Origin: a bacterium
GTDB taxonomy: Bacteria > Patescibacteriota > Saccharimonadia > Saccharimonadales > AWTP1-31
Assembly: GCA_030426125.1 (NCBI GenBank)
Contig: JAUHZB010000002.1
Location: 67,633-131,632 of the forward strand
Reading direction: 5' to 3'
DNA length: 64,000 nt
The position numbers and the translations under genes are program-made. This document shows, piece after piece, positions 13,166-15,566 of the stretch (positions within the stretch are counted from its first letter, which is position 1; each line of letters begins with the position of its first letter). The notes below the pieces were generated by a model. The model did not search any database, was not told where the DNA came from, and saw only the letters and a list, made by a program, of their open reading frames with translations.

Positions 13166-13828
13166 TTAGCGCAGACCTAGCATGCTAGAACAGGCTGGCC
13201 ATTGTCCCCAGCCACTTCGGGCCTGAAGAATTTGAGCTCGTTTTATTTGTTCAGCTTTACTGTGTTGGTGCGGTAAACCAGTTCCACCAACTGCACGCCA
13301 GGTTGCGGCACTAAACTGCACACCACCGTAGTAACCATTGCCAGTATTTATTGACCAGTTTCCACCTGATTCACAACTAGCTAGTCGATCCCATACACTA
13401 CCACTAACCGCGTTACTACTAACAGCTGGCGCTGGGGTTGGCGTAGTTGCTGGAGCTTGATAGCTTTGCTGACTGCTACTTGAAGTCGATTGAACTCTTG
13501 TCTGTGGCTTTGGCGCTTGGTTGCTTGGAATAGCTCGTTTCTTTAGCTTTTCGGATTTGCTAGGAATCCGTAATTTATCTCCTGGGTGAATAATGTCAGG
13601 ATCAGCGATTGATTTGTTAGCGTAGAAAATTCGCTGGTAAGTTGTTTTTTTCTTGTTAGCAATTTTAGATAAGCTATCGCCTGGTTGCACTTCAACCACT
13701 ACTTTAGCTGGTTTTTTATTAGTTTTGGTTTGCTCAGCAGCTTCTACTGCTTTGGTGCTTGGTCCACCGAAAAATAGGCCGACAGCCAGAGCAAAGCTCG
13801 CTAAAAAAGCGATTTTTTTGATTGACAT
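13166..13828 (-). CDS. secreted LysM-domain protein with C-terminal Rpf-type (resuscitation-promoting-factor-like) transglycosylase domain
   Basis: 220 aa. Signal peptide [20 protein letters not shown]. LysM ([11 protein letters not shown]...[10 protein letters not shown]). Rpf signature [32 protein letters not shown]. Strong Shine-Dalgarno site GGAGGAG. Confidence 0.8.
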   Translation of the reverse strand: [220 protein letters not shown]

Positions 13829-13937
13829 AAATATACTCCTCCTTTTGTCCCAAAGTGCCCTGCATGATATTAATATTGTTTATTGGCAGGTTGGGATTTG
13901 CTCCACTTTTTCCTCACAAAAAAATGGCACAAGGACT

Positions 13938-13965
13938 ATCTTACATGCTGGTATTTATATGTCAA
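13938..13965 (-). promoter_or_regulatory. candidate promoter of the Rpf-like gene
   Basis: Minus strand TTGACA (13960-13965), 16 nt, TAAGAT (13938-13943). About 100-nt leader. Confidence 0.5.
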
Positions 13966-14009
13966 ACCTAACAGATTACAAAAAATGTTGTAATTTTAAT
14001 TGGTCGTGC

Positions 14010-15566
14010 TTATAAGGTGTTTGGATATCGTCTGGCGATATATTCATTTGATTCATAAATTTGACGGGACTGAACGTGATTAATACCAAGAGCCATGGTT
14101 GTCATTGAACCGTATTCTCTGTCCGGTATTTCAACGGTCTTGGCTTTTAATGATCCAGTTATAATGGCTGGTTGCCTGGAATCATGTCTTATAGTCATAC
14201 GGTTTTGATCAAAATAGTGTACTTCTGTTTGTCGAGAAATATCTATAGTCTGTTCGGAGTTATCTGAGAATGTATAAGTGTCATTCCCCCAGGCTACGGC
14301 TGTAACTTCACCTCCGGGATTCCTGATTAGGATTGGCGACTCAACATGTTGAGACTCAATATTGAAAGGATTATCTATTTCTAGGACACCATTACTTAGA
14401 ATTTCTAGATGTAGGCCTAGTTTTTTGGCGCGGGTTAATATCTCATGTCCAGATAATTGTTCGTCTGGGAATAGCTCAGAGCTAATATATAGATCCAATT
14501 CGTTGTAGACGCCGTCTATACCGCGGTAGTTATAGTTATGGGCAACTCCACTACGCAGTAGATCAGTTCTTTGCTCAATGAACTGTATTGTTCCGGGGCA
14601 AAGATCTTCAAGGCGGGATAATAGCTCTGCTTGTTTCTGGGCTAGTGGCGAATTTGCATCAGGATCGGTTGGTTGGATTATCCCCCGATCGACTAGTGTC
14701 CACTCCAGTATCGTGGCTCGATCCTCAGAAACATTAGTTGCACCGTAGTCGTTAACGAATACTCTGTTTTCGGAGGGTAGAATGTATTTATCTTCTATAG
14801 TTTCTTCAAACCCCCTAAATCCTTGGTAGTTTATTGTATTGTATTGCTCAATAGCTAAGTCTACGTCGACGTCGGTACTACCACATAGTAGCTGAGCATC
14901 TATAGCATGGATTAATTCGTGTACTACAACGGCAGTGGTTTCGCTAAAGAATGTTGAATTATCTATTGCACTAGCCATATCAACATAGATTTTACCTTCG
15001 GCTAAATCGTACATGCCTCCAGCTATTTCTAGGCTGTCCTGATTATCATTAAATTCTGCTTTACGACTAATATTTTTTACATAGATAATTTCTGGTGCAT
15101 CCAGGGCTCTTATTAAGTTTGGTGAAAACAGCTGTAAGGCCTCCATGAGACTTTGCAGGTTAGTGGTTACTGCGCTACGCATTGCTTCATCGTCACCCGC
15201 TAGGGTTTCATATTGATAAATAGATACTTCTGACGGTTCATCGGGAAAACTTACTCTTATCCCATACTCTTGATCGATGCTGTCTATGATTTCTAGTGTA
15301 GATTGCTGGTTTAAATAACCGTCCATCGGTCTTAAGTAATTTGAAAAAATATCTTCTTGAGTTTCGGCGACTAACTGACTTACCTGAAATTCTCCAACGC
15401 TAAGGTCGGCTGTCGTACATAAATTGTCATCTTGGCCAGGCGGTTGTTCCCAGTATTCGTTTTGTTGAGTACCCAGTTCGGGGTTACTGCATCCAAGCAC
15501 CAGTGAGCCGGCGAGCAGTGGAGCCGCCAAGTATTTGATCGGATGGATACGATTGTTGGCTGACAT
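14010..15566 (-). CDS. lipoprotein with HExxH zinc-metallopeptidase motif (gluzincin, ATLF/PPEP-like; tentative)
   Basis: 518 aa. Lipobox LAGSLVLGC. VVHELIHAID plus downstream YGATNVSEDRATILE (third-ligand Glu pattern). Confidence 0.55.
   Translation of the reverse strand: MSANNRIHPIKYLAAPLLAGSLVLGCSNPELGTQQNEYWEQPPGQDDNLCTTADLSVGEFQVSQLVAETQEDIFSNYLRPMDGYLNQQSTLEIIDSIDQEYGIRVSFPDEPSEVSIYQYETLAGDDEAMRSAVTTNLQSLMEALQLFSPNLIRALDAPEIIYVKNISRKAEFNDNQDSLEIAGGMYDLAEGKIYVDMASAIDNSTFFSETTAVVVHELIHAIDAQLLCGSTDVDVDLAIEQYNTINYQGFRGFEETIEDKYILPSENRVFVNDYGATNVSEDRATILEWTLVDRGIIQPTDPDANSPLAQKQAELLSRLEDLCPGTIQFIEQRTDLLRSGVAHNYNYRGIDGVYNELDLYISSELFPDEQLSGHEILTRAKKLGLHLEILSNGVLEIDNPFNIESQHVESPILIRNPGGEVTAVAWGNDTYTFSDNSEQTIDISRQTEVHYFDQNRMTIRHDSRQPAIITGSLKAKTVEIPDREYGSMTTMALGINHVQSRQIYESNEYIARRYPNTL

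Follow-up and report, generated by a model that had tools for sequence, protein, structure and literature searches.

The closest described counterparts of the gene considered here, which encodes a LysM domain followed by a resuscitation-promoting factor (Rpf) domain in a 64,000-nucleotide (nt) stretch of contig JAUHZB010000002.1 (hereafter the window), are the Rpfs of Actinobacteria. The proteins of Mycobacterium tuberculosis (RpfB, RpfC and RpfE) and the Rpf of Micrococcus luteus belong to PF06737 and have, like the window protein, the C-E-S-G-G-N-W motif, the catalytic glutamate and both cysteines; actinobacterial Rpf domains are 58-82% identical to that of the window over ~80 residues (PDB 1xsf and 3eo5, E ~1e-25). 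Their layouts differ. RpfB is organized as DUF348-G5-Rpf and the M. luteus type as Rpf then LysM, whereas the window protein consists of signal peptide, LysM, linker and Rpf and is encoded in a Candidate Phyla Radiation (CPR) genome at a conserved site by rpmG.

A second counterpart is SEML1_0667 of Candidatus Southlakia epibionticum ML1, a cultured Saccharibacterium, which appears as its one PF06737 protein in the supplement of Wang et al. 2023 (PMC10633639). According to this supplement, SEML1_0667 is RpfB-like (DUF348x2-G5-Rpf, K21688), lies beside rsmA and was scored non-essential in all three transposon sequencing (Tn-seq) analyses. It shares PF06737 with the window protein, but is listed without LysM and at a different locus. 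As far as this annotation goes, Rpf domains are therefore not foreign to the group.

An original prediction, made from the letters of the window alone, had called the Rpf family characteristic of Actinobacteria and had suggested that the gene might have been acquired from a host or might act on it, as a pair with the lipoprotein gene immediately upstream. We instead favour, with a probability of about 0.65, a different explanation: a vertically inherited LysM-Rpf wall glycosidase, next to which a gene for a zincin lipoprotein was independently inserted, without coupling between the two.

The LysM-Rpf gene and its place in Saccharibacteria

The gene and its flanking signals are arranged as follows, in window positions.
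13166..13828, minus strand: LysM-Rpf gene, 220 amino acids (aa), with signal peptide, LysM, linker and Rpf
13739-13828, minus strand: putative signal peptide, ~aa 1-30, by inspection only
13562-13693, minus strand: LysM domain, aa 46-89, Pfam PF01476
aa 90-143, minus strand: Ser/Pro/Gln-rich linker
13169-13399, minus strand: Rpf catalytic domain, aa 144-220, with Cys152, Glu153 and Cys213
13838..13844, minus strand: Shine-Dalgarno AAGGAGG, 9 nt before the rpf ATG, conserved in orthologues
13898..13932, minus strand: predicted 5'-terminal hairpin of the rpf leader, from single-sequence folds
13938..13965, minus strand: predicted sigma-70-like rpf promoter, TTGACA-16 nt-TAAGAT, from a promoter scan
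13094..13129, minus strand: hairpin region between the rpf stop and tRNA-Trp, putative bidirectional terminator, weak evidence
12974..13048, plus strand: tRNA-Trp (CCA), convergent with rpf
15598..15795, minus strand: rpmG (ribosomal protein L33), here 31 nt upstream of the 518-aa gene

Both open reading frames (ORFs) named in the original prediction, of 220 and 518 aa, were confirmed on the same strand, 181 nt apart. In the 220-aa protein, LysM (E 3.8e-12, 46.4 bits versus a cutoff of 20.9) and the transglycosylase-like/Rpf domain PF06737 (aa 144-213, E 1.3e-28, 99.9 bits versus a cutoff of 27) both exceeded the Pfam cutoffs, in agreement with the domain calls of the original prediction. By inspection, the 33-residue N-terminus is laid out (n/h/c) like a Sec signal peptide: the n-region is basic (K4, K5), the hydrophobic core spans 17 residues and VEA↓A is a putative cleavage site; the putative sites in orthologues read VRA↓E, AYA↓Q and VLA↓Q. 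The 21-residue Rpf motif quoted earlier corresponds to aa 152-172. Glu153, Cys152 and Cys213 are all intact, and their columns are 99-100% conserved among 131 Saccharibacteria-type and 69 Actinomycetota sequences. Structures of M. tuberculosis RpfB, RpfE and RpfC were matched by the 80 residues at the C-terminus (1xsf, E 1.4e-25), in an alignment that spans the C-E-S-G-G-N-W motif and the second cysteine.

Meanwhile, the NCBIfam equivalog cutoffs were not reached for Rpf (ResusProRpf, 135.2 versus 180) or RpfC (82 versus 200). The domain is thus a true Rpf domain, but the protein as a whole is no orthologue of the actinobacterial proteins so named. The DUF348 repeats and G5 of the RpfB architecture were not found either, as Pfam gives only LysM and PF06737. 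With L083, a relative with 90-97% identity, as the dN/dS reference, rpf showed an omega of 0.036, indicating purifying selection. On sequence grounds, the domain, motif and purifying-selection features of both the 220-aa and the 518-aa protein are far beyond chance.

The rpf promoter sits inside the 181-nt gap that separates rpf from the 518-aa gene and is kept upstream of rpf in L083, L003, L089, L088, L087, L007, L008 and L009; the two genes are thus read as separate transcription units. The leader hairpin starts at a conserved yTTGTGyC, which coincides with the predicted start of the transcript, and its 3' arm varies between genomes with pairing retained. All eight orthologous leaders compared folded to a 5'-terminal hairpin in single-sequence folds (z-scores −0.5 to −2.8). 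The leader is ~110 nt long, and the hairpin loop often reads UGUGAGG. RNAalifold found no consensus structure on an ungapped leader alignment, in which the hairpins differ in length, and an Rfam search upstream of rpf at a permissive threshold gave no family and no riboswitch, including the ydaO type. The leader could stabilise the mRNA or be regulatory. A scan placed a terminator-like site on the plus strand at 13107-13123. Together, the promoter, the leader and the downstream hairpin region suggest that rpf is monocistronic.

Evidence for long residence came from gene order. Five of the compared genomes, which were taken from the homologue list, share the order TrpRS, RluA-type pseudouridine synthase, holB, TPR protein, tRNA genes, (PspC), L33, LysM-Rpf, AAA_33 kinase, YgjP-like, (histidine kinase), SecE, NusG, L11 and L1. 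These are L003, L088 (a 700-kb contig), L089 (GCA_020428405.1), L094 (GCA_034680565.1) and L095 (GCA_964267615.1); the tRNA genes of the block were verified as Thr/Tyr/Thr in L003 and the window. L008 and L087 retain the rpf-kinase-YgjP-secE-nusG half. In addition, rpmG is the conserved upstream neighbour of rpf in relatives, and tRNA-Trp is placed and oriented alike in the window, L008 and L083.

At least six other Saccharibacteria genomes, with GC contents of 34-52%, have LysM-Rpf at this position. Rpf in these position-matched genomes shares 50-59% identity with the window protein. This falls inside the 32-91% range of its neighbours in the same genomes (holB 32-38%, YgjP 36-41%, kinase 39-60%, TPR protein 63-75%, L33 72-85% and NusG 83-91%). 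The GC content at third codon positions (GC3) was 0.32 for rpf, 0.35 for the 518-aa gene and 0.30-0.42 for the neighbouring genes.

The same layout is also widespread. The best 120 homologues in a search of 5.8 billion proteins are all ~200-265 aa long with LysM before Rpf. In one-genome-per-species GTDB contigs, full-length matches were found in metagenome-assembled genomes (MAGs) of Saccharibacteria/Saccharimonadales at 47-54% identity, the exceptions in the labels being two 'Parcubacteria' and two just 'bacterium'. Actinomycetota in these contigs match the Rpf domain, and three of them match more of the protein too. In view of the LysM-then-Rpf order of the best 120 homologues and the RpfB-like gene annotated in a cultured Saccharibacterium (PMC10633639), the designation of Rpf as characteristic of Actinobacteria was too narrow.

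In addition to LysM-Rpf and the RpfB-like type, Saccharibacteria show another Rpf layout, seen in L037 (Saccharimonadales MAG JBGTMN010000059.1). There, an ORF of at most ~1031 aa ending at ~6222, with boundaries that come from ORF extension, has a C-terminal Rpf domain 72% identical to that of the window.

The fixed position across genomes of 34-52% GC, the divergence in step with the neighbours and the genome-typical GC3 argue that rpf is an old resident. LysM-Rpf is most likely a long-resident, vertically inherited gene of a broad Saccharibacteria group, fixed between rpmG and the tRNA-Trp/kinase/YgjP/secE/nusG block. With the same three observations, the earlier suggestion of an acquisition from the host finds no support.

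The putative 518-residue zincin lipoprotein

The 518-aa gene upstream of rpf has the following parts.
14010..15566, minus strand: gene for a putative lipoprotein zincin with lipobox, HELIH and E281
15489-15566, minus strand: predicted signal and lipobox, aa 1-26
~aa 27-60: predicted disordered tether
14532-15314, minus strand: metallopeptidase-like domain, ~aa 85-345
14907-14921, minus strand: HELIH, aa 216-220, followed by Tyr274 and Glu281 (nt 14724-14726)
aa 360-518, minus strand: predicted beta-rich C-terminal domain

The N-terminus reads ...LLAGSLVLG↓C26, with the lipobox LVLG↓C26, and the closest relatives have LAGC, VASC or LAGC at this site. By a strict pattern, a lipobox was recognised in 27 of the 66 aligned family members. 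H216, E217, H220, E281, A284 and G295 are invariant in all 66, and C50, C228 and Y274 (among others) are near-invariant. In 56 members, HExxH is followed by Y..E at 53-69 residues. The original prediction of a lipoprotein gluzincin, made from HELIH and a downstream Glu, is well supported by the lipobox cysteine C26 and the four invariant motif residues (H216, E217, H220 and E281).

The family is small. A word-indexed search with the 518-aa protein returned only four relatives, a profile search of the word-indexed database with alignment A2 only 3 proteins, and a metagenome scan with the family alignment A4 only 2 loci. An exhaustive profile search of 1.84 billion proteins gave 90 family representatives, of which 24 scored below 1e-30, with a common core at positions ~180-345. 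An exact look-up of P0121 gave no record. The 518-aa protein has no Pfam match, matches the NCBIfam Leptospira lipoprotein family LIC13305 with 33.7 bits versus a cutoff of 250 (aa 180-288 only), and has no match in PHROGs, plasmids or phages. Among the family members, weak Pfam matches were obtained to DUF6782, Peptidase_Mx1, SprT-like and, in one case, ATLF, as well as to M90 for the core. The small zincin lipoprotein family to which the 518-aa protein belongs is thus not covered by Pfam and has no curated model.

Using AlphaFold, the protein was modelled with a deep alignment at a predicted local distance difference test score (pLDDT) of 84.5 and a predicted template modelling (TM) score of 0.86. 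A 4-sequence alignment reached a pLDDT of only 49, and the deep-alignment model was used. In this model, a disordered tether is followed by a zincin-like domain of alpha/beta type, and the C-terminal domain is rich in beta structure. The best Foldseek match in the PDB was 4l7a (E 3.4e-5, probability 1.0, TM 0.52 on the target), the Bacteroides putative zinc metallopeptidase BACCAC_01431 (Peptidase_Mx1, PF15890). Also among the closest counterparts is 9urd, a 'substrate import-associated zinc metallohydrolase lipoprotein'. Both are zincin-fold lipoproteins, and a weak profile match to them runs through HExxH...Y..ED. However, the sequence identity is only 16%, the 518-aa protein has an extra C-terminal beta domain of ~160 aa, and weak PF15890 matches occur in only 2 of the 66 family members.

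The loose resemblance to ATLF/PPEP peptidases proposed earlier was fair as an observation. The protein shares with anthrax lethal factor (LF) and PPEP (M34, ATLF) the pattern HExxHA(I/V)D as well as a Tyr located seven positions upstream of the Glu that serves as third ligand; it reads YGATNVSE at this site, where LF presumably reads YGRTNEAE. The spacing from H to E is ~61 residues, compared with ~45 in LF. LF was also the best sequence match of the core-domain profile in the PDB (E 0.1), followed by a Bacteroides zinc metallohydrolase lipoprotein (E 0.2), but neither is significant. In Foldseek, collagenase G and LF were far weaker than 4l7a (LF E 0.09). Membership of MEROPS M34 or Pfam ATLF was not found: the 518-aa protein has no ATLF match, and one of the 66 members has one at E 0.0099. 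The LF/PPEP resemblance is a lead, not a membership. The protein itself is a zincin by motif and modelled fold, with a gluzincin-type HExxH...E signature, and a predicted zinc metallopeptidase.

Compared with L083, the omega of the whole gene is 0.10, with 0.057 for the peptidase domain and 0.19 for the C-terminal one. The gene is thus under purifying selection, although its identity of 90% indicates faster evolution than in the neighbouring genes (92-100%). Its start lies 31 nt downstream of rpmG; the scan predicted no promoter for it, and it is probably read through from rpmG.

Function, origin and competing explanations

Under the favoured explanation, the 220-aa protein would be a Sec-exported peptidoglycan glycosidase. 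Its N-terminal LysM would tether it to the glycan strands of peptidoglycan, and the flexible Ser/Pro-rich linker would give the C-terminal Rpf domain access to its substrate. Within a lysozyme-like fold, Glu153 would serve as the catalytic acid and Cys152-Cys213 would form a disulfide, and the domain would cut the backbone between N-acetylmuramic acid and N-acetylglucosamine. Transcribed alone from its own conserved promoter, rpf would most likely serve to remodel the organism's own wall in growth, division and cell separation. A class A penicillin-binding protein is encoded in the window at 60771-63764, indicating that the organism makes its own peptidoglycan. The 518-aa product would be a membrane-anchored surface lipoprotein, a predicted protease that is not functionally coupled to Rpf.

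Several observations weigh against parts of this explanation. LysM-Rpf is absent from the genome of S. epibionticum ML1, so the gene is not universal in the group. The only Rpf-domain gene of that organism, of RpfB-like architecture, is listed as non-essential by Tn-seq, so a strictly housekeeping role is not implied. A secreted muralytic enzyme of an epibiont could equally reach the host wall. No recognisable Shine-Dalgarno precedes the 518-aa gene. In addition, a neighbour-joining bootstrap tree of the 80-residue Rpf domain from 111 sequences had support near 0 and cannot decide on horizontal transfer.

The phylogeny of the Rpf domain against actinobacterial Rpfs, proposed originally as the way to recognise horizontal transfer, was thus carried out by neighbour joining, and clade support appeared only in a tree of concatenated LysM and Rpf. 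There, 51 Saccharibacteria-type sequences together with L014 were separated from ten other LysM-bearing Rpfs of Actinomycetota with a bootstrap of 0.60, compared with 0.12 for the Saccharibacteria-type sequences without L014. Descent within a broad CPR clade, which the original prediction had named as the outcome contrary to transfer, is largely borne out by synteny and breadth, but the tree gives weak support for one clade (0.60, with one Nitriliruptorales sequence included). No clade-specific residues or indels separate the 131 Saccharibacteria-type domains from the 69 of Actinomycetota. The mean domain identity is 67% between Saccharibacteria and Actinomycetota and 63% inside the Actinomycetota set, a sample picked for similarity to the query.

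An ancient horizontal transfer, in either direction, between Actinomycetota and an ancestor of this Saccharibacteria clade may have preceded the vertical descent. We regard this as a possibility of some weight, though the less probable course. It would account for the identity of up to 82% with actinobacterial RpfB-type domains and for the grouping of L014 just described. L014 and L055, contigs of high-GC Nitriliruptorales/Nitriliruptoraceae MAGs, have the same LysM-then-Rpf order as the window, L014 being 47% identical over residues 43-220; they differ from the window in being actinobacterial with a GC content of 69-73%, and L055 has two LysM domains. However, most LysM-bearing Rpfs of Actinomycetota have the reverse domain order (Rpf then LysM), the closest actinobacterial domain matches are RpfB-like proteins of ~370 aa, the high identity may just mirror strong constraint, and the 80-residue domain yields no resolved tree. 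Moreover, RpfB-like genes beside rsmA are annotated in Saccharibacteria. This is also the arrangement of rpfB and ksgA in M. tuberculosis and suggests old shared ancestry among monoderm phyla. The layout of L014 and L055 may trace an old exchange in either direction.

A host-directed role of LysM-Rpf is unlikely, but deserves attention. The protein would act on host actinobacteria, either through a local breach of peptidoglycan or as a growth-stimulating 'wake-up' factor, and would be conserved for the epibiotic lifestyle. Rpf stimulates dormant actinobacteria at very low concentration. The window domain is indistinguishable from the actinobacterial ones, with a between-set identity that exceeds the identity within Actinomycetota, a secretion signal is predicted and the conservation is strong, as the omega of rpf indicates. 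On the other hand, the LysM tethering, the ribosomal-gene neighbourhood and the strong, constitutive-looking promoter suit an autolysin-type role as well, and the RpfB-like gene of S. epibionticum was listed as dispensable for growth on the host (PMC10633639). A more specific form of this idea is still more speculative. The LysM-Rpf of environmental Saccharibacteria would be an epibiont-made resuscitation factor, which nicks host peptidoglycan and wakes dormant actinobacterial hosts to feed on, with the lipoprotein protease as an accessory surface factor.

That the lipoprotein protease and Rpf form a pair, jointly acting on the envelope of an actinobacterial host at the attachment site, is improbable. 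In its favour, an extracytoplasmic location is predicted for the two proteins, their genes are neighbours in the window and in L083, and cultured Saccharibacteria grow on Actinobacteria (PMC10633639). However, the 518-aa gene occupies the site between rpmG and rpf in the window and L083 only. In relatives below 90% identity it is absent there, and rpmG is directly followed by the promoter and rpf with a gap of ~180-270 nt; five more distant genomes show this direct succession. No Rpf was found near members of the 518-aa family in four other contexts (P0130 in three contigs, L091, P0135 and P0136), and rpf has its own promoter, conserved within the 181-nt gap. Moreover, the rpmG-secE interval is an insertion hot spot in relatives. 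By gene order, the 518-aa gene is best described as a lineage-specific gene that was inserted separately between rpmG and the promoter of rpf; its adjacency to rpf is accidental, and the pair of the original prediction is abandoned.

Two further insertions were seen in relatives. L083 has an extra 4.6 kb between rpf and tRNA-Trp, with genes (2899-7214) for a 429-aa protein and a DEAD helicase with a WhiB domain as well as split transporter genes. L088 has a gene for a 553-aa serine recombinase (3437-5098) upstream of PspC-L33.

Finally, a recent acquisition of rpf from a current actinobacterial host, for which only the actinobacterial reputation of the family and the domain identity of up to 82% speak, can be dismissed, as its GC3 equals that of the rest of the genome while the Actinomycetota loci have an overall GC of 64-73%, position-matched orthologues are as low as 50% identical, and the closest actinobacterial matches are laid out otherwise (RpfB-like or Rpf-then-LysM).

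Lineage, neighbourhood and significance

The window covers the rpoBC, ribosomal protein and secE-nusG region of a small genome with a GC content of ~42%. Its flanking genes are 50-90% identical to those of Saccharibacteria MAGs, in the same order. S5 ends at 29015, where L15 begins, and the L30 gene is absent between them. The succession of S5 and L15 without an intervening L30 is a CPR trait. No 16S rRNA gene was found within the window. The best and full-length matches and the synteny to Saccharibacteria/Saccharimonadales MAGs, together with the missing L30, assign the window to a Saccharibacteria-type (CPR) bacterium, as the original prediction had supposed.

Several other features of the window were recorded. 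Two orphan ORFs of 134 and 151 aa (15994-16398 and 16496-16951, minus strand) are located in the region 15943-17019, with tRNA-Tyr on one side and tRNA-Thr(GGT) on the other. One of them has a run of Glu residues. Neither matched Pfam, NCBIfam or PHROG, nor was there an exact match in a collection of 15 billion proteins. In L003 the corresponding tRNA gap is only 570 nt, and the two ORFs may be lineage-specific insertions or non-genes. A 775-aa ORF (5602-7929, minus strand) has Pfam marks for both ThyX (Thy1) and thymidylate kinase and a faint one for deoxynucleoside kinase; it adjoins a dCTP deaminase gene (7971-8714) and resembles a fused nucleotide-salvage module. Additionally, the minus strand encodes a class-II DAHP synthase-like protein, which matches the profile in part (20771-21955), and, at 2671-4194, a complete threonine dehydratase (IlvA) that includes the regulatory domain; such amino-acid biosynthesis genes are unexpected in a reduced CPR genome. 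A 281-aa protein (55503-56348, minus strand) has a weak match, under the Pfam cutoff, to zinc-dependent phospholipase C and could be another envelope-active enzyme.

In the literature searched, we found no paper discussing resuscitation-type Rpf in Saccharibacteria or CPR; the only trace was the annotation in a supplementary table (PMC10633639). The 'Rpf' of CPR papers refers to the unrelated RpfB/RpfF system of the diffusible signal factor (DSF), not to the resuscitation type.

The analysis corrects the assumption that Rpf domains mark Actinobacteria or a host-derived transfer. In many Saccharibacteria, LysM-Rpf has its fixed place in the rpmG-secE neighbourhood. Saccharibacteria in culture have Actinobacteria as hosts, and these respond to Rpf, which makes the enzyme an inexpensive, testable candidate for wall remodelling by the epibiont or for manipulation of its host.

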